A stretch of 62,262 nt of DNA, filler included, from Collodictyon triciliatum (Eukaryota): assembly GCA_043381765.1 (NCBI GenBank). It is 5 parts of 5 records of this genome, joined end to end, with 100 filler letters (N's around TTAATTAATTAA, not from the genome) between each part and the next. Parts side by side here need not be neighbours in the genome. Positions count along the whole stretch, not along the records: positions 30,523 to 43,918 come from JBHJMP010000659.1; 4 more parts are not named here. One strand, written 5' to 3'. Of the stretch, positions 23,936 through 43,918 are shown in pieces. The translations under genes and the position numbers were made by a program. Numbering within the stretch: the first letter of the stretch is position 1; each line of letters opens with the position of its first letter. The notes under the pieces were generated by a model. It was not told where the DNA came from. It did no database searches and saw only the letters and a program-made list of their open reading frames with translations.

Positions 23936-30250
<6,315 letters not shown>

Positions 30251-30522: not shown

Positions 30523-30597
<75 letters not shown>

Positions 30598-30670
30598 GAA
30601 ATCATGAAAAACTTATTTCAGAGTATTATTTGCGGGCGCACATCAGGACACTATCGAAAAAACGGATTAC

Positions 30671-31998
30671 TCTGCATCAATAGACTTGGCTGCCTCACAT
30701 CCCAAATAGGTAGGGACGATGTGCTTAATATTGATTCATGAGTGAAATGTTAGAAAAATTACATAATGTGACATCACAACAAATTGAAATATATACTGAG
30801 ATTCAGATGAACTATATATTTTATCAACCCAGGGTGACTCAATTTTATAATACCTTAAGGTCTGCTTTCAGCCCCACCAACCATACATGGATATTTTTTC
30901 CAACATAACTACGGACTTCTTTGGCCCATTCTATCGCACTCTGGAGGGTCATAGGGCAGCTTAAATCGAACGCGACTATTGCCCCGCTGGACCCACGGTA
31001 ATAAGACTGCACTATTGATTTGTATCTTTCTTGCCCGGCGGTGTCCCATCTATATGGAGGAAATTTTTAATTTCATCAAAATCAGAAATTCGCAAAGGAT
31101 ATGTGTAGCCAAGGTAAAGGATTACATTTGAAGGCAGAAATCTTTCCCCAGAATATCAAATGTCTGTGAAACGAAATCAACTCCTACAGTTGACTACACC
31201 GCAACAACATAATAAGAATTATAAGAGAAAAAAAGGGTTAGTTTTTGTATGTCATAACATCTCTGTACTTTGTATCGAATGAATGGGGAAAACAAAAAGG
31301 TTTTGGGTATAATTGTTAAATCATTCATGCTGTGGATTTAACTCGCCATATTCAAAAAAAAAATATCGGAAGGGAAAAGTCATTACAAATGGCTTAAATT
31401 TCTGCTGCAACTTCTAAAAAGCATACCTTATAATTACTTGTTACAGAATCTTTACAAAACCTCCCGACCAAAGTAGATTTTCCAACATAAGAGTCACCAA
31501 CAATTATGACTTTGTCCATGAGATCTACCGAATCCATTCTTTGTGTATATGGTTAACCCATTCAGATGATTTGATTATCAAACACCCCATTTAGGTCATA
31601 GCTGGAAAGAATGAAACAAAAAACTATTCGTGATTGGACATTAAAATAGAAGATGAAAGCCTACATAAATGCAGTCAGCACAGCCTCCTTTATCTCTTCC
31701 AAGAAGTCTGATTGACCATTACTTTAACAATCACATCGTGAATTGTGTCAGCATGAAAAAAAAAATCGAAAAAAAAAGAGAACCCGAATTGGTTGTTAGT
31801 GTTTTCAGTAATGACGAACTATTTTTGCCTTCAGCTCATTTTTGGGTTGGTGCGCTCATCTAAGGTATTTTCTAATATATGAATATACTCTTGAGTGATT
31901 GCCATCCCGGTATCAGGGTAGCCCGAAAGCCTGTGCGCACGTAAGCGAAATGAAGATGACGGATTCTCGGAGGGTGTTTCCGACTTTGCTGTCAACAT
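30671..31998 (-). CDS. Rab-family small GTPase, Rab34/Rab36-like, 3' end cut by contig start
   Basis: ATG 31998 plus two short exons give an N-terminal extension (..DFLEEIKEAV..), then KVIIVGDSYVGKST, STVGVDF, WDTAGQERYKSIVQSYYRG, LVGLKADL. Confidence 0.85.
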
Positions 31999-33758
31999 TT
32001 TACTGCGAATACTAAATGGAAAATGAAAAATGGAACATGAAAATAGCTGTATGGTTTGTGCATCTTTATCTTTTGGAGAAGTACTGCCCCGAATTATAAA
32101 AAGTGCTCTGTTCTCGATATAAAAAACGATTTAGATAATTTTTTCCTATGAAACGCCATATCTCTGGTATTTTTTTCTTCGATAAAAATAGGACTATATT
32201 TGCTGAGTAAAGCAGCGATTATCCTCCTTTTTGCCTCTACCTACCCAGCCTCCCAAGGAAAGCTTTTTTTGATTCTTAAGTAAACAATATGATAGGGCAT
32301 TACTTCTCTCGGCGAGCAAGGGGCTGTATGCTCTTGTATTGGCCACTAAAAAAACAGAAAAGGAGGCAGGTACAACGAGGCAAAGATAAAAACCAAAAGC
32401 CGACAGTATATCCCTGTAGCGAATATATATCCGACCACCACCCCGGGTTACTTCAGCGTCTATATATGCGACTGTCAATAGAAAATTGTCCGAAGACCTG
32501 GTGTTGAGCATTCCTCTGATATGCCTCTTCATCTACGGCCTCATAGACTGCGCGATGATTACCACAGGCAAGCAGAACCTTCAAGTAGTGTTTTCTCCAA
32601 ACAGCCCAGCCATTTAAGTTCTTTGAGATTCCCACATCCACAATTGTCCGCATAGCCCCAGAGACAAAACACTATGTGGCTATGGTTTCCCAAAATCATT
32701 GCATGGAGGATTAAGGGACAAAAATTCCTTACTTGTTTTTCTTTTCTGTAAACCGCAGCACCAAATACCCACAAAAGCATACCGACCACACAATAGACAC
32801 AAATCACCGAGCTCAGTATTACCCTTTCCATTCAAACCCACCCATTGCCGTATTCCCCGGCGCTCTGAACTCGTTGAGAAAGGGACAGGATGGGGTTGAG
32901 TAGAATCTAATCCATCGCCCAAGCCGCTGGTTTCCAGCATCTTAACCTGACATCCCTTGTTCTTCTGCCTCGGTCTGCGCTGTGTATCAAGGTCTAGTGT
33001 GCGTGCATATTCCTCTAAATGACATTAATTCCCAAAGGTTGTCCTTGAATCTCGGGAGGCCAAAATCTTGGATAAATGCAAGCAGTCCAGATTTGTCCAT
33101 CTTCCACCCTTCACATTCCCATCCCAACTTGTGGCTCATCTGTGGTCAAAGCACTTTTGGTGTGTCAAAGGTTCATCTTTCAGTTACATGTTCAGAATAA
33201 GTGCAGAAACATTTAGTCATCCAGTCAGTTGCTCCAGATATATATATAAATATTATATATGAAGTAGAATTTTACTATGCATAATCAGTTTATTATTAAT
33301 GAGACATCAATTTATATTATATGAGAAAATAGCATCTTATTAATTATAAATTCCGCATTAATTTACTGAAACAAGTCTACTTCCGCAGCAAGGGTTTACG
33401 ACGTTCAGAAAGGTGCTGGACGTAGGCATCCCTGGGAGGGAGAAGGGACCACCGGATTCTGTTGCCTTTTGGGTGCGCCCATTATTTTGCGTCTGTTCAC
33501 CACCACACCCCCATTACCTATTCCATGGATTACTAGACTTGTTTCGAAACGATGGGAACGATATCCCGGGATATTAAGGCAAGTCGCATTGCTGGTGTAT
33601 CATAAAGCTTTTGTTTATTGGATGTTTTTTTTTTTTTTTGTTTTTTTACGTAGAAAATAAAGATGATAAGAAAAAAAGGCCACAAAACAAGAATGATGGA
33701 GATTGCAAAAGTATGAATAGATCAAAACTGAAGATTGTTAGATACTTGAAAAATTAGT

Positions 33759-37702
<3,944 letters not shown>

Positions 37703-39118
37703 TTGTTGATCGACTCTTTCTTTCTCTTGAAGAGCTGAGCGGCAGCAGGACTCAACAGGTCTTGCTTTTTATTTCCCGGCTTCTGTGGTGGTAGATGAGT
37801 TATGCGATCGACAACGCCCGGTTAGGAGAAGCAGGGGACGCTCAAAGATTATCTAAAATAAAACTCGCTTGACTTTTAACTCTTTCTCTTTTGAAAAACA
37901 ACGCAAAAGAAAACACGTGTTGAGCCTCAGGGCTCCGGTCTTAACCCTCTCGCTGCGCATCTTGATCAAAGTCCCCCTCAATCAAGACAGGCTCTGGGAA
38001 AGATTATGAAATCGAATCGGCTGACAAATAAAATTCCAGAAATGGGCAAATGATGAGTGCCGTCATTTCAGCGAGATGGGGTTCGAACATCTTTTGGCCA
38101 ATCACAACACGGAGACTTCACCAACAACACCATCAAATCGATACTCCTGAAAAGCTGAAAAAGCAACAACACCAACCTCTACAGAACATTATTCAAATAA
38201 AATCAATTTCAATGAACAATACACACTAATCCGGATACTTGCACCCCGCATCCAAAGCCAACAGCCACAAATAGGCAATGCACATAATTCGTCTTATTTA
38301 GAATAGTTTTATGTATATTAGTAGAAAGTGAACAAATATGTGTTTTGTTTCGTGGCCATGAGAGAAAGCACATCACTATATGTGTGCGAGTGTGGGAGAA
38401 ACGTTATGAAGTGTGTATTCGCAGGCGGCCACAAGATGCAAACAAACAAACAAACAAAAGTCAAAAGCAGATCAGATTTCTTCACAACCTTTCAGAGGAA
38501 GCAAAGGAAGCTCGTGCAAAGGAACTGCGAAGAGAAGGGACAGCAAGATAATCAAGTCCACACGCTTCGCCCTCAAGCAAGAGATATATGAGTGTGATAT
38601 AAAACCCCAAAGGATACTCAGCGTTATTGTTCTTGTGATCTATGTTAAGCCGTCTGGGGCAACAAAATCCTTCCTGGGGTCTTTATCCTGCTTGGACTAA
38701 TGTGTCCAGCAAATCAAAGCAATGTGTTTGTTTTCCTGGCGCAAACACTTCCAGAAAACAAACTCTTCTTTCGAGTCGTCCTCTATTTTATGTTGAAGGA
38801 GAGACAAAACTGGAGCAAAGGCAGAATAAAGACAGGAGAAAAAAAGAAAGAAGGGAACATAAGATAAAAGAAAAGAAAAACTATAGAGCAAAATACAAAA
38901 ATACCTCAAAACAGGTCCACCTTGAGTCCAACCGATTCGTCGCCGACTCACTCCACTTGCATCGCAGCAGCTTTTTGACCGCCCGATCGCTTTCTACCAA
39001 TACACTCGGTCAAACTAGACCAGGAAGCAGATCACACTCCAACCAACCAAACCAGTAAATCAGGTCCTCCGTTTTTGAATCCGCATTCTCATATGCAACT
39101 AGTCTCCTCTCCTTTATA

Positions 39119-39217
39119 CTCAACTCAACTCAACTCAACTCAACTCAACTCAACTCAACTCAACTCAACTCAACTCAACTCTACTAGCCTCAACTCAACT
39201 CAACCCGACCCGACCCG
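39119..39217 (+). repeat. (CAACT)n / (CGACC)n pentamer repeat just upstream of the AdoMetDC ATG
   Basis: Direct reading. Confidence 0.9.
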
Positions 39218-39218
39218 A

Positions 39219-40004
39219 ATGAGCGCCACCTCCTCCGAACCTGACGCTGCACAATGGTCTACAACGATTTCTGAGTCCGATCTGAACGCCGGGGATCTGA
39301 GCGACTCCGCGTGTCCTCCTTGCATGGGCGGCACTTCAAGCGGCTTCGAAGGCGTGGAAAAGAAAGTCGAGATTGATTTCAAGGGTGTTGGACTGGGCGA
39401 CACGCCGACTCTTCGTTCCATCCCGCGCGACGAGTGGGACGCCATTCTATGGGACGCCAAATGCTGCATCCTCAACGTTTCCACCAACGACATCTTTGAC
39501 GCCTATCTCCTCTCCGAAAGTTCGCTCTTTGTCTACGATGCGAAGCTCATGATTAAGACCTGCGGAACAACGACATTGCTGCTGATGATTCCTCGGCTTC
39601 TTGAGGTCGTTCGTGACGTGTGTGGACCACACGTCAGTGTCGAGTTTCTGCAGTTTTCCCGCTCTGCTTTCCGCTTCCCACAGGAACAGCGTTTTCCTCA
39701 TACCAGTTTTGAGCAGGAGGTATCATATTCCACCCTTTCTTTCGTATTACAAGCGTAGTCAGGGGATTGGTTCAGTTTTACTTTTGTCATTGGGCATCTC
39801 TCTTTTTTTTGATTCATATTTATTTTTGTGTTATTTTTTCTTTCCTAACTTGTACATTCTAGGTCAAGTTCCTGCAGCAATACTTTGATGGCGACGCATA
39901 CACACTTGGTCGTCTGAACGGTCCGACCTGGCACTTGTATATCGCAGATTACACGGACTCGTCTCGCAAGCACGAAGAATTCAATGACCAGAGCATCGAG
40001 GTAA

Positions 40005-40042
<38 letters not shown>

Positions 40043-43000
40043 AAGCAATCATCCGTAATCTGAGTGGAACCTCTTGTCATGAACAGTTAACACATATCCA
40101 ATCGAAGCTTATTCTTTTTTTTTCTCATGTCAACAGACTTCACTCAAAGAGAATGGCCACCATTCGCTAATGTTGTGTTCTTTTTTCCCCTTTCCTATTT
40201 AATCATCACCATCCTAAGATTATCATGCACGACTTGGACGCGGCATCCATGGCCCATTTTTTTAAGGGAGAGAACTTTACCACGCCTGAGGAGGTCACCA
40301 GGGCATCTGGTATCAAAGGGCTAATGATGGAGGGAACAATCATCGATGAATATTGTTTTGATCCATGCGGATACTCCCTGAATGCTTTGAACGGCAACGT
40401 GCACTACACCATCCACATCACACCAGAGGCACACTGTAGCTATGTCAGCTTCGAGACAAATCTCTCCTCAAAGAATTACATGTCGTTAATCTCTCAAGTG
40501 GTTTCAGTCTTCAAACCTGGTCGTTTTGCCGTAACATTGTTTGTCGACGACCATGCAATAGCCGCGAGCTCTGACCTTTTCAAAGGATCCGTATGTAGCT
40601 CAACACAGTTTTTCATAAATAATGAAGGAAATAACTCACCCACTGCTAACCCATTATTGAATAATATAATTCATTTTTTTCACAATTTAAAGAAAAACAT
40701 AACCACTCTTTTACAGACATTTTTGGAAGGATATTCGCTGAACGACAAAGCTGCTCATAAATTCTCTGGTTCCTACAAAGCCATTTACTGCAACTATACC
40801 ATGACAGATAAAGAAAGGTACTACTCTCGAATCAATGGACAGCGCGATGAAGCGAATGTTTACCCGAAACGCGCAATGATGTGGGTCTCATAAAATTTAC
40901 GTCATGTATTGTCTAAATCATTATCCTTTTCTTACATTCAGCATCGGGCTTGATTCCATTCACGAGCTTACAATCTCGGAGCAGCACCAAACTGGAACAC
41001 ACTACTCTGGATGGGAACAATGTCCTGATATTTTCAAGGAGCTTAATGTTGAAAAAATTGAAGGAACGCCAGCCATTACTGACTTGATTCGAAGAAAAAT
41101 TGACGAACAGGAAATGGAGGAGGCATTCTTTTTGAGTAAGTGAAACATCCAGAGATATTATCACCCAATTTTTTTCCAATCCTTTTAACTATCCTACTGA
41201 GAAACAGAACTACTCTACTCATAGGTTTCTTTTTCATTTTGATTTTTTTAAATAATACATCGTGTAATCTTTCATTTCAATCATTAGTGGACCTCGGGAC
41301 TGTCGCTCAGAAGTTAAATGAATGGACGAAGAAACTTCCAAATGTCCAGCCGGTTTATGGTTTGTTGCTTAGCCGTGAACCATGATAGTTCTCATAGCAC
41401 ACAATTTTTCCCATAGATTGTTCTCTCCATCATACGCAGGACAGTTTCATTGAATTTCTTTTATACCCTGCTCGTCATTTCTCAGCCCTCAAGTGCAATA
41501 CGTCTCCTGGAATTCTGAAGATGCTAAACCGCTTTGGATGCAACTTCCAATGTTCTAGTCAGCCCGAGATTGATGCTGTAAGATAATAAAAAAAAATCAA
41601 TAATTCAAAGCACATTGAAGCTGACGCTAAAGTCATGGCATGATTCAATACATATTCTCCTCTAGGATTTACGAATAAATATTCAAAGCCCTCTGATTCC
41701 TTTCCATTTACGCAAACGAAGACGTTTCTCTTGCTCAGTTTTATTTCCCTCTAACTATGACATGATTCCCAAACAGGCGCTTTCTGAAGGAATTCCTGCA
41801 AGCAAAATCTTGTACTCAAATCCATGCAAGATGCCATCGCAAATCAAATACGCAAAGAAACACGGTATCGGGACGATGATGTTTGACAGCCAGGAGGAAT
41901 TGGAGAAAATCGCAGCAAACTACTCAACTGCCCAGCTCCTGATGCGGATCGCCCTTCCTGATGTACTACCTGCAGAAGGAATCACAGCTTCAAGCACAAC
42001 CGCGATAACAAATACCGCTTCAGGGAAATACGGAGTCGCCATTTCTGACTGCCATAATTTGCTTCGGGCTGCAAAGAAACTCCAACTGCAAGTTGTGGGT
42101 GTTAGGTATACAGCCGCTATATATTACAGAACCGTGCACAAAACTCCTCCCTCACTCAGCACACCACCAAAAGTGCCAATGTTCCCTTTAAATCGATTGC
42201 TTCAGAAGCTGACACAAGTGGCCATACATATGTAAATTTAGTTTCGATGTGGGCTTCAACTGGGACGGAGTTGACCCCGAGAGATATGCTGTTGGACTGG
42301 AACGAGCAAGGAGCATTTTTAATATTGCAGACTCACTAGGGATAAAAATGGACACAGTTGATATTGGTGGCGGATTTCCAGGTAAACACCGTTGCACAGC
42401 CACCAGTCACATACGTGTATCATTATGTTTGTACATACATTTGTTTTAAAATGAAATATTTAATATATTGGAAATATCTTGTAGTTGTGAATTGCATGTT
42501 TTAGGAGAATACGACCCTTGCAATAATAATAAAGTGCTCAATATCCCCTCTTAAACCAAACTCAAACACGTACACAAACACATGACCAGGCCTTGAAAAT
42601 GGGAAAGTCCAGTTCGACACCCTTGCCACCGCCATCAACCAGAAAGTGGAAGCACTCTTCCCAGAAAACATCCGCATCATTGCCGAAACTGCACGCTTCA
42701 TGACGTCCACATGTGCCACTCTCGCTGTCAACGTCTTTGCCCGCCGCGTGGTGAACAAAGGCTCCGGCCCCGTCATCGGTACAACCTCCATATTTAAATC
42801 AAGACCAATGACGAGAATAACCAACGTGTGCATCAGCCACGCCTTCGCTCAAAGAAAACCTACACATCCACCAAACCACAACCCAGACGCCGAAGCAGAC
42901 CTCCAGAACGCAACCCCGCGGTTTCTCTACTACGTCAACGACGGGGTCTACGGCTCGTTCAACTGCCTGCTCTTTGACAAGGCCAAGGTCACCGCAATCC

Positions 43001-43370
43001 CACTCGACCCGCAGGCCGCGCAGGAGGACCAATTGCGGTATCCTTGCACGGTCTTTGGCCCCACGTGCGACGGTACAACACCCTCCATCCAAACCTGCTT
43101 TCTCGCCAGCTGAATCCGCCACTGCCACAGATTTTCATCACACTCGACAAAAGCACTGCATATGTGCGCGATGCGGCATTCTCGCTCATCAAGCGCGCGT
43201 TTTTTCTCACAGGTCTCGACTGCATCTCTGAGCGCGCCCTGCTTCCGGAACTCAGTGTGGGCGACTGGCTCTACTTCCCCAACATGGGCTCATACACAAC
43301 CACGGCGGCCACAAACTTCAACGGATTCCCTGCCACACGCATCTTCTACACCTGCGCCTCCACACACTGA
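39219..43370 (+). CDS. S-adenosylmethionine decarboxylase fused to an ornithine-decarboxylase-like (fold III PLP) domain
   Basis: Exons 39219-39719, 39863-40000, 40219-40590, 40717-40880, 40942-41135, 41288-41359, 41486-41577, 41777-42105, 42242-42381, 42590-42778, 42887-43072, 43213-43370 join in one frame via GT-AG introns. AdoMetDC motifs: FEGVEK, YLLSESSLFV, IKTCGTT, FPHTSF, FDPCGYS, TIHITPE..SYVSFETN. ODC motifs: PVYALKCN, NPCK, DIGGGFPG, YYVNDGVYGSFNC, GPTCDGLD, NMGSYT, FNGF. Confidence 0.9.
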
Positions 43371-43705
43371 CACGCCCCAGTTAGCCCATACCATTTATAT
43401 CCAGTAAGAAATAAACGATCTAATGCCTTATATGGACGCCCGCACTTGCATCTTTGTCCCTGGTTCTGGCGCTTTGTGAGTTATCCGCAACGGCCTTGAA
43501 AGAAAACAGATAACGTGGTGATGATAACGTTCCGCAGCGCCTCCATTTTCACCTACTCTTCTTCCTTGAAGATACTCTTTGTTGCGTTATTCTTTTTTTC
43601 TCTTTCTTCTAGAGTATTCCTTGATTGTTTATACACACCTGATCTGGTCAACCGACACGATCGCCAGCTTATCTGCACGGTTGAACGACAGCGCCCAAAA
43701 CAACG

Positions 43706-43918
43706 ATGATTCAGTCGAGAGTCACTTCTGCTCTTTCGCAACTGCGCGTCCAATCGTCTTCTGCAGCCGTGGTTTTATCAGACTTTGCTGGGAATGCCGA
43801 ACGCAAACGAAGCCACGCCGAAGAACGAAAACCACCACTTGTTGTGTTTTCAGGGTCGTTCAACCCGCTGACGATCTCTCACAGGGAAATGTGTGTGGAA
43901 GCGTGTCGCTCGCTTTCG
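43706..43918 (+). CDS. NMNAT/cytidylyltransferase-superfamily nucleotidyltransferase, N-terminal fragment cut by contig end
   Basis: LVVFSGSFNPLTISH matches the GSFNPxTxxH motif of NMN adenylyltransferase-like proteins. Confidence 0.65.

Follow-up and report, generated by a model that had tools for sequence, protein, structure and literature searches.

Organisms control polyamine synthesis in unusual ways: animals through antizyme and its inhibitors (AZINs), trypanosomes through prozyme and malaria parasites through a fused enzyme. The fused enzyme of Plasmodium is a protein of ∼1400 residues with parasite-specific inserts, in which S-adenosylmethionine decarboxylase (AdoMetDC) is joined to an ornithine decarboxylase (ODC) half that is catalytically canonical. 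Its core is believed to be an ODC dimer, and each domain reportedly modulates the other (PMC3253432). AZINs, which are free-standing and monomeric, bind antizyme but not pyridoxal 5′-phosphate (PLP), AZIN1 being described as inactive (PMC6313458); inactive ODC homologs are the subject of Ivanov, Firth and Atkins (2010, via PMC5518511). The trypanosomatid prozyme is a dead paralog that activates AdoMetDC (PMC5201418). Here we describe a gene of the freshwater protist Collodictyon triciliatum (assembly GCA_043381765.1) that carries an AdoMetDC fused to an ODC-fold domain with an altered PLP pocket. The gene lies at 39219-43370 (+) of the window, by which we mean the whole analysed stretch of 62,262 nucleotides, made of five parts of this genome (positions 30,523 to 43,918, which include the gene, come from JBHJMP010000659.1). 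Its 12 exons encode an AdoMetDC-hinge-ODC polypeptide of 823 residues. We give an even chance to the reading that the ODC half is no longer a standard ODC, and that it has been retained because it dimerises, perhaps still binds a ligand and acts on AdoMetDC.

A conserved, altered PLP pocket on an expressed fusion gene

Read in six frames, the region 39000-43600 contains pieces of AdoMetDC and ODC on the + strand, in shifting frames and separated by AT-rich spacers, and from this arrangement we recognised a eukaryotic split gene. An exon model was built from GT..AG sites and then checked with contigs of four public runs aligned to the same region; RNA contigs from three of these (X1 and X2, from one study, and X3, a freshwater metatranscriptome from another) match the window at 99% or more. 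All 11 introns are GT..AG and bridged by RNA contigs, ten of them as listed joints. The junction intron, which joins the two enzymes in frame, is bridged in three runs from two studies, and the open frame is intact across it from exon 4 into exon 5. Only with RNA could we detect the introns at 40591-40716 and 42779-42886, both in frame and read through in the earlier sequence-based note discussed below, and the junction donor at 40818; the second of these introns is also backed by alignment to an ortholog from Diphylleia rotans (P0001, below), which agrees in the position of the start codon as well. Because the 12-exon frame is bridged by RNA from the ATG at 39219 to the stop codon at 43368-43370, the AdoMetDC and ODC halves are made as one protein from one mRNA.

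The N-terminal half is readily recognised as AdoMetDC (PF01536): exon 1 matches the human proenzyme 1jl0_A (E = 4.5e-24) and exon 3 the human alpha chain 1i72_A (E = 7.9e-30). Residues F7, E8, E11, the E67-S68 cleavage site, C82, F223, S229, H243 and E247 are present and, judged by these, the half is fully canonical. So too are the acidic residues E15, D174, E178 and E256, which we take to be the putrescine site of human AdoMetDC, and the half is probably putrescine-responsive.

Homology to eukaryotic ODC, a fold-type III PLP decarboxylase, spans the whole of the second domain (PF02784 and PF00278 by precomputed Pfam assignment; E = 6.6e-16 for the window exons against Trypanosoma brucei ODC). 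With residue numbers taken from alignments with ODC chains of known structure (mouse, human and T. brucei), Q replaces D88, D replaces H197, F replaces S200, T-A replaces P275-G276 and K replaces H333. Among 235 other ODC-domain sequences the canonical residue is found in 219 (D88), 220 (H197), 228 (P275), 226 (G276) and 209 (H333); S occupies position 200 in 195 of 201 canonical ODC sequences, column assignment in loop regions (K169, S200) being uncertain for divergent sequences. D88, H197 and S200 are said to stabilize bound PLP, and belong to a set of 20 residues critical to ODC (PMC5518511). H197, S200, G276, R277 and Y389 are elsewhere named as PLP binders, and an Aedes paralog with H197N and D332R is called non-functional (PMC3543441). 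Literature searches for mutants of H197 or D88 yielded lists of critical residues only. Three of the replacements in the window (S200F, P275T and G276A) alter elements at the PLP phosphate.

Much else is retained: K69, E94, R154, K169, G171, G235-237, E274, R277, Y323 and D332, together with C360, D361, D364, G387, Y389, F397 and N398. The list takes in the PLP set (K69, E274, R277, the G235-237 loop and Y389), which P0001 also has, and the substrate and catalytic residues D332, C360, D361 and F397. An earlier note, made from the sequence alone, had located the substitutions and named 12 retained elements (K69, R154, K169, GGG, E274, R277, D332, Y389, Y323, C360, D361 and F397); every one of these is found in the final gene model, the substitutions at the very codons claimed. 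The note was also right that AZIN1 reads FACSS at the D88 motif (GFACSS in AZIN1 of the marmot, Marmota, P0293). Its starting point for the domain, 41288, is the start of exon 6, but the N-terminus of the ODC domain is already encoded by exon 5 (40942-41135).

The RNA contigs of X1, X2 and X3 differ from the window at 22 coding positions, and are therefore data distinct from it. None of these differences falls at a substituted codon save a synonymous A>G at 42693, in the codon of A276: the substitutions are not assembly errors, an explanation that the earlier note had listed among those fatal to its claim. As that note had also observed, the loop between R154 and K169 is some 12 residues longer than usual (27 positions against 15 in vertebrate ODC) and rich in Ser and Thr. 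It counts 16 positions in P0001. Since the insertion is absent from P0001 and two nonsynonymous polymorphisms lie inside it, the loop is, on this comparison, a species-specific insertion of little weight. We considered whether it might be an unspliced intron, but no in-frame GT..AG pair fits and the RNA contigs traverse it.

P0001 is a complete open reading frame of 843 residues from the EukProt transcriptome of D. rotans. It has the same architecture, and its residues 453-839 match mouse ODC 7odc_A at E = 7.7e-97. Like the window it has Q88, D197, F200, W202, T275 and K333, differing in that it keeps G276; the ten-residue motif around D197 (SFDVGFNWDG) is identical in the two. Identity between window and P0001 is 0.757 in the AdoMetDC half (354 aligned columns) and 0.754 in the ODC half (407 columns), and the best-conserved stretches are the pocket motifs. 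Under our first hinge model the counts were 261/335 for AdoMetDC, 294/385 for ODC and 31/72 (43%) for the hinge, the last of which assumes a junction donor at 40881; the RNA donor at 40818 shortens the hinge by 21 residues. Where the RNA contigs depart from the window's coding sequence, 15 of the 22 changes are synonymous; within the ODC half there are six synonymous and three nonsynonymous differences, the latter all in variable loops. Given that the ODC half is as conserved as the AdoMetDC half and that synonymous differences are in excess, we conclude from the sequence comparisons that it is under purifying selection. The earlier note had looked to orthologs either for the same substitutions under such selection or for random decay: what P0001 offers is the former, with all but G276A shared and ∼75% identity in both halves.

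That the altered domain is an artefact or a decaying pseudogene is, in light of these data, hardly credible. The frame is open through 12 exons, RNA contigs of three runs show a spliced, polyadenylated transcript, the independent transcriptome of a second species has the same substitutions, and synonymous differences exceed the rest.

Trees of the two halves (single FastTree runs on automatic alignments) place a stem of 0.60 before window and P0001 in the ODC tree versus 0.28 in the AdoMetDC tree, a difference of ∼2x. The distance between window and P0001 themselves (0.336 in ODC, 0.255 in AdoMetDC) gives a ratio resembling that of canonical pairs. It looks as though the pocket changed in one burst and then came under normal constraint: a functional shift, and not ongoing decay.

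Fusions of this kind are found in many other eukaryotes, and AdoMetDC is N-terminal to ODC in all 68 two-domain sequences collected (window, P0001 and one duplicate included). Among the 65 other fused representatives, 38 have all 20 of the ODC-critical residues listed in PMC5518511 (after Ivanov et al. 2010), three lack one and five lack three, three of these five being truncated or partial. The remaining 19 lack 10-19 of the 20, with AdoMetDC residues intact where present; five of the 19 have truncated or only partly alignable ODC parts and one a truncated AdoMetDC N-terminus. A canonical or near-canonical ODC half is found in Gloeochaete, Cyanophora, Klebsormidium nitens and the sequences labelled JGI 'Mesen1' and JGI 'Mesvir1'. 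An AdoMetDC-ODC fusion is also said to be described for Micromonas, in an abstract by Green and colleagues from 2011. The degenerate representatives (P0168, P0385, P0396, P0437, P0393, P0139 and 13 more) include Galdieria sulphuraria, G. partita, G. phlegrea, Pyropia vietnamensis, Rhodochaete pulchella and Leptophrys vorax. The G. sulphuraria entry is named S-adenosylmethionine decarboxylase in the database, those of G. partita and Pyropia hypothetical protein.

In the 14 full-length degenerate ODC domains D364 is kept in 13, G387 in 12, D361 in 11 and E94 in 11; C360 is kept in 8 and K69 in 2. D364 has been tied to ODC dimerisation and G387 to monomer structure (PMC5518511). Judged by these residues, a dead ODC-like domain on an intact AdoMetDC is a recurrent arrangement, of a kind that the earlier note had proposed for the present gene, and in red algae it is evidently old. 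In the AdoMetDC tree the nearest relative of window and P0001 is P0125, from a Logan contig, which groups with them at a support of 0.99. The ODC half of P0125 is clearly dead, being 27% identical to that of the window and lacking 11 of the 20 critical residues, which suggests that the wider clade came to do without the ODC activity of the fusion. A literature search, with subscription journals and supplements outside its view, returned no paper on degenerate ODC halves in AdoMetDC-ODC fusions.

Possible roles of the ODC half

Window and P0001 both lack D88, H197 and S200, and the catalytic set is in this sense incomplete (3 of 20 missing). We infer a loss of standard ODC activity from the replacement of H197, which contacts PLP, and of two further PLP-contacting elements, and from the precedent of AZIN1, an inactive relative that looks nearly intact. 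The marmot AZIN1 lacks 5 of the 20 residues but keeps K69, H197, C360 and D361; as an inactive protein retains both K69 and C360, their retention in the window is no proof of activity. That the domain would serve as a regulator is suggested by the recurrent degeneration of the ODC half in this same fusion, including the nearest relative P0125; that it would dimerise, by the dimerisation-linked residues kept in the window; and that it would act in cis, by the mutual modulation of the two halves reported in Plasmodium. A complex prediction between the AdoMetDC half and the ODC half of P0001 returned no verdict, at a score of 0.00, in a run in which the alignment went unused.

Several observations weigh against a regulatory module. 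Both species keep 17 of the 20 critical residues, among them the Schiff-base lysine K69, E274, C360, D361 and D332. Across 201 canonical ODCs, 102 columns are conserved to 85% or more; the window keeps 83 of them, Cyanophora, with H197 intact, 84 and the degenerate domains 47-54. When identity to canonical fusions is measured in each half, the ratio of ODC to AdoMetDC identity comes to 1.02 (window) and 0.98 (P0001), compared with 1.04-1.39 among canonical fusions and 0.59-0.81 among degenerate proteins. S200 and H333 also vary in otherwise canonical glaucophyte fusions. Finally, the variant is carried by only two sequences among the matches listed: P0001 is the only close relative there, from ∼5.8 billion clustered proteins and 1.84 billion representatives. 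No further ortholog was found in the best 120 of 2162 matches to an exon query (E ≤ 0.001), the best 150 of 10679 in the representative search or the best 120 of 512 matches to the ODC half, and a search from P0125 returned no closer relative.

These observations bear on a different explanation, in which the ODC half would be a working PLP decarboxylase with a re-engineered pocket, acting on ornithine or a changed substrate, and the protein bifunctional as in Plasmodium. The PLP ring may then be covered by F200 or W202 instead of H197, with D197 perhaps substituting for D88 as the carboxylate near K69. To call the domain half-dead, as the earlier note did, is right as to the PLP-side substitutions, which are real, but overstated, because most residues on the cis side are kept (K69, E94, R154, G235-237, E274, R277 and Y389); both species share these, and D332, C360, D361, F397 and N398 besides. 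The conservation of the pocket motifs above all other stretches, the canonical rate of change after the stem, the 83 conserved columns and the fact that the changes appear coordinated rather than random, all five being fixed in both species, also fit a working enzyme. A switch of substrate also has a precedent: Gm853 has been reported as a leucine decarboxylase (PMC6313458). Against this stand the near-universal H197 and D88, most exceptions to which are degenerate at many other sites, the alteration of three PLP-phosphate elements and the inactivity of AZIN1; the exchange of F200 or W202 for the stacking of H197 is, moreover, our own conjecture. On balance we consider a working enzyme possible but rather doubtful.

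In a free-standing ODC-like protein of 450 residues (P0174) the position of H197 is likewise D (SFDLG), with E274D and P275I; K69 and D88 are kept. It represents a second, independent case of His-to-Asp replacement in the ODC fold.

The distribution of the changes over the active site raises a further possibility. All five lie on the cis (PLP) side, whereas Y323, C360, D361, F397 and N398 are intact, a pattern that the earlier note had already seen as losses on the PLP side with the trans-donated residues spared. Together with the retention of the dimer-linked residues it would suit a subunit that forms a heterodimer with a separate, canonical ODC, donates C360, D361 and F397 to it and so tethers AdoMetDC to ODC. 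For Galdieria, a red alga whose fused ODC-like domain is dead, a review of microalgal polyamines gives ODC entries of their own in its Table 2 and makes no mention of the fusion (PMC6356823). We nevertheless think such a partner improbable: tblastn found no second ODC, nor a second AdoMetDC, in the window; most cis-side residues are conserved, and these a pure donor subunit would not need; and since C360 is present in just 8 of the 14 degenerate domains, fused domains of this kind do not in general serve as donors.

Still less probable, indeed very unlikely, is that the ODC half is an AZIN-like decoy that sequesters antizyme. The loss of D88, as in AZIN1, would agree with this, as would K125, an AZIN1-type lysine that is said to raise antizyme affinity (PMC6313458). 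Only one of the seven residues of the antizyme-binding element (119, 124, 125, 129, 136, 137 and 140) is kept, however, namely Q119, the standard being an animal sequence and as such a weak yardstick for this protein, and four of the seven differ between window and P0001; the sequestering module proposed in the earlier note finds no backing here. We know of no antizyme in the lineage to which the organism belongs. The AZIN1 forms of residues 277, 331, 332 and 389 make AZIN1 monomeric (PMC6313458). Three of these are of the ODC type in the window (R277, D332 and Y389), which speaks against a decoy; the fourth, 331, is F, as it is in 140 of the 235 ODC homologs.

The fold, the dimer-linked residues and most pocket residues are kept, but along the stem of the Diphylleia-like lineage the PLP pocket was remodelled (D88Q, H197D, S200F with W202, P275T and H333K), and it has stayed constant thereafter. 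If the ODC half is indeed a module acting on AdoMetDC, it would do so in cis, and the Diphylleia-like form would be an early or stable version of a state that has decayed much further in red algae, Leptophrys and many uncultured eukaryotes. More specifically, and only tentatively, the ODC half could be a cis-acting sensor pseudoenzyme, in which the binding of PLP, ornithine or polyamine sets the activity of AdoMetDC through an ODC-type dimer, and the Diphylleia-like protein a preserved intermediate between enzyme and tethered regulator. Were this so, red algae, Rhizaria and other eukaryotes would each have converted the enzyme to a regulator on their own, and polyamines would be controlled by cis-acting sensors in a way that is widespread but so far undescribed.

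Gene features and surroundings

Coordinates of the gene, its exons and its introns are collected in Table 1. The transcript begins near 39002, at a loose end of the contigs that resembles what we take to be a template-switch oligo, and the mRNA ends near 43430, where a poly(A) loose end is seen.

Table 1. Positions in the window of the AdoMetDC-ODC gene, its exons, altered codons and introns.
Feature	Position	Strand	Evidence
Upstream in-frame ATG (39093) and (ACTCA)x17.4 microsatellite (39118-39204), 5′ leader	39093-39204	+	
Exon 1: start codon, N-terminal extension, first AdoMetDC part (F7, E8, E11, E15, E67-S68, C82)	39219-39719	+	donor RNA-bridged
S68 codon of AdoMetDC cleavage site	39519-39521	+	exon 1
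Exon 2: AdoMetDC middle, ends D174-Q-S-I-E178	39863-40000	+	RNA contigs, sequence reading
Exon 3: AdoMetDC core (F223, S229, H243, E247, E256)	40219-40590	+	RNA joint 40590>40717
Exon 4: AdoMetDC C-terminal end and hinge start	40717-40817	+	joints 40590>40717 and 40815>40940 (cut +2) in X1, X2, X3
Exon 5: hinge and ODC-domain N-terminus	40942-41135	+	RNA contigs
Exon 6: start of ODC beta/alpha barrel	41288-41359	+	RNA contigs, gene model
Exon 7: K69 (41491-41493), D88Q (CAA, 41548-41550)	41486-41577	+	alignments, RNA contigs
Exon 8: antizyme-binding-element region, R154, Ser/Thr-rich loop insertion (41948-42025), K169, G171	41777-42105	+	12-residue gap vs T. brucei ODC
Exon 9: SFDVGFNWDG with H197D (GAT, 42246-42248), S200F (TTC, 42255-42257), W202 (42261-42263); G235-G237 loop	42242-42381	+	alignments
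Exon 10: E274-T275-A276-R277 (42685-42696), i.e. E274 (42685-42687), P275T (42688-42690), G276A (42691-42693), R277	42590-42778	+	alignments, RNA contigs
Exon 11: Y323, D332, H333K (AAG, 42979-42981), C360 (43066-43068), D361	42887-43072	+	alignments, RNA contigs
Exon 12: D364, G387, Y389, F397, N398, stop codon (43368-43370)	43213-43370	+	RNA joint 43071>43212
Introns bridged as joints	39720-39862, 40591-40716, 40818-40941 (junction), 41136-41287, 41360-41485, 41578-41776, 42106-42241, 42382-42589, 42779-42886, 43073-43212	+	RNA contigs
Intron 2	40001-40218	+	adjacent pieces of single RNA contigs, beside A-run

Intron 2 contains a run of 36 A at 40006-40041, which the aligner passed over; for this reason the evidence for the intron consists solely of adjacent contig pieces. 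In the leader, the ATG at 39093 is in frame with the main start codon and the microsatellite sits between the two, such that a shift in (ACTCA) copy number that is not a multiple of three would turn this ATG into the start of an overlapping upstream open reading frame. Upstream open reading frames regulate AdoMetDC mRNAs in plants and mammals.

Two RNA contigs match the locus over short stretches only. One from X1 matches 39435-39475 (40 bases of an AdoMetDC exon) and diverges on both sides; it may represent a second AdoMetDC-like transcript in that sample. One from X3 matches only 42931-42963, the conserved YYVNDGVYGSFN-coding stretch, at 90-95% and then runs into GC-rich sequence that, translated by eye, has the canonical YDHA motif. 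This is the ODC of another organism and not a demonstrated paralog in the window organism. Elsewhere in the window, a Pfam search of 10 long open frames gave only a weak match to Beige/BEACH below the curated cut-off (27057-27401, − strand, E = 3e-05, beside a run of N), where an exon of a gene for a BEACH-domain protein probably lies.

Comparison with known systems

The AdoMetDC-ODC fusion is not a peculiarity of Plasmodium but is spread over several eukaryotic supergroups, and its ODC half has lost catalytic residues repeatedly while staying attached to an intact AdoMetDC. The lineage of Collodictyon and Diphylleia presents a mild, stably conserved version in which the catalytic lysine is kept. 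As such it offers a tractable protein with which to ask how AdoMetDC is served by an ODC-like domain tethered to it, and whether His197, universally conserved as it is, is truly indispensable in this fold.

A close counterpart is the bifunctional AdoMetDC/ODC of Plasmodium falciparum, which has AdoMetDC, hinge and ODC in the same order on one polypeptide. The protein described here differs in its size (823 residues), in the 11 introns of its gene and in the replacement of D88, H197, S200, P275 and H333. With AZIN1 and AZIN2 it shares an ODC fold that has lost few critical residues, D88 among them, while keeping K69, C360 and D361 (15 of 20 critical residues are retained in AZIN1, 17 in the window). 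Unlike the AZINs, however, the domain is fused to AdoMetDC, is of the ODC type at three of the four monomer-deciding positions (331 being F) and has not kept the antizyme-binding element; AZIN1, for its part, keeps H197, which the window domain does not. The trypanosomatid prozyme provides the parallel of an impaired polyamine-pathway domain retained for the control of AdoMetDC, a role that for the present domain is a proposal; prozyme is an AdoMetDC paralog that works in trans as a heterodimer, whereas the candidate regulator here has an ODC fold and is fused in cis. The same architecture is found in the degenerate fusions of red algae and Leptophrys, which likewise have an intact AdoMetDC half: in these 10-19 of the 20 critical residues are missing, usually including K69, whereas in the window three are missing and K69 is kept.

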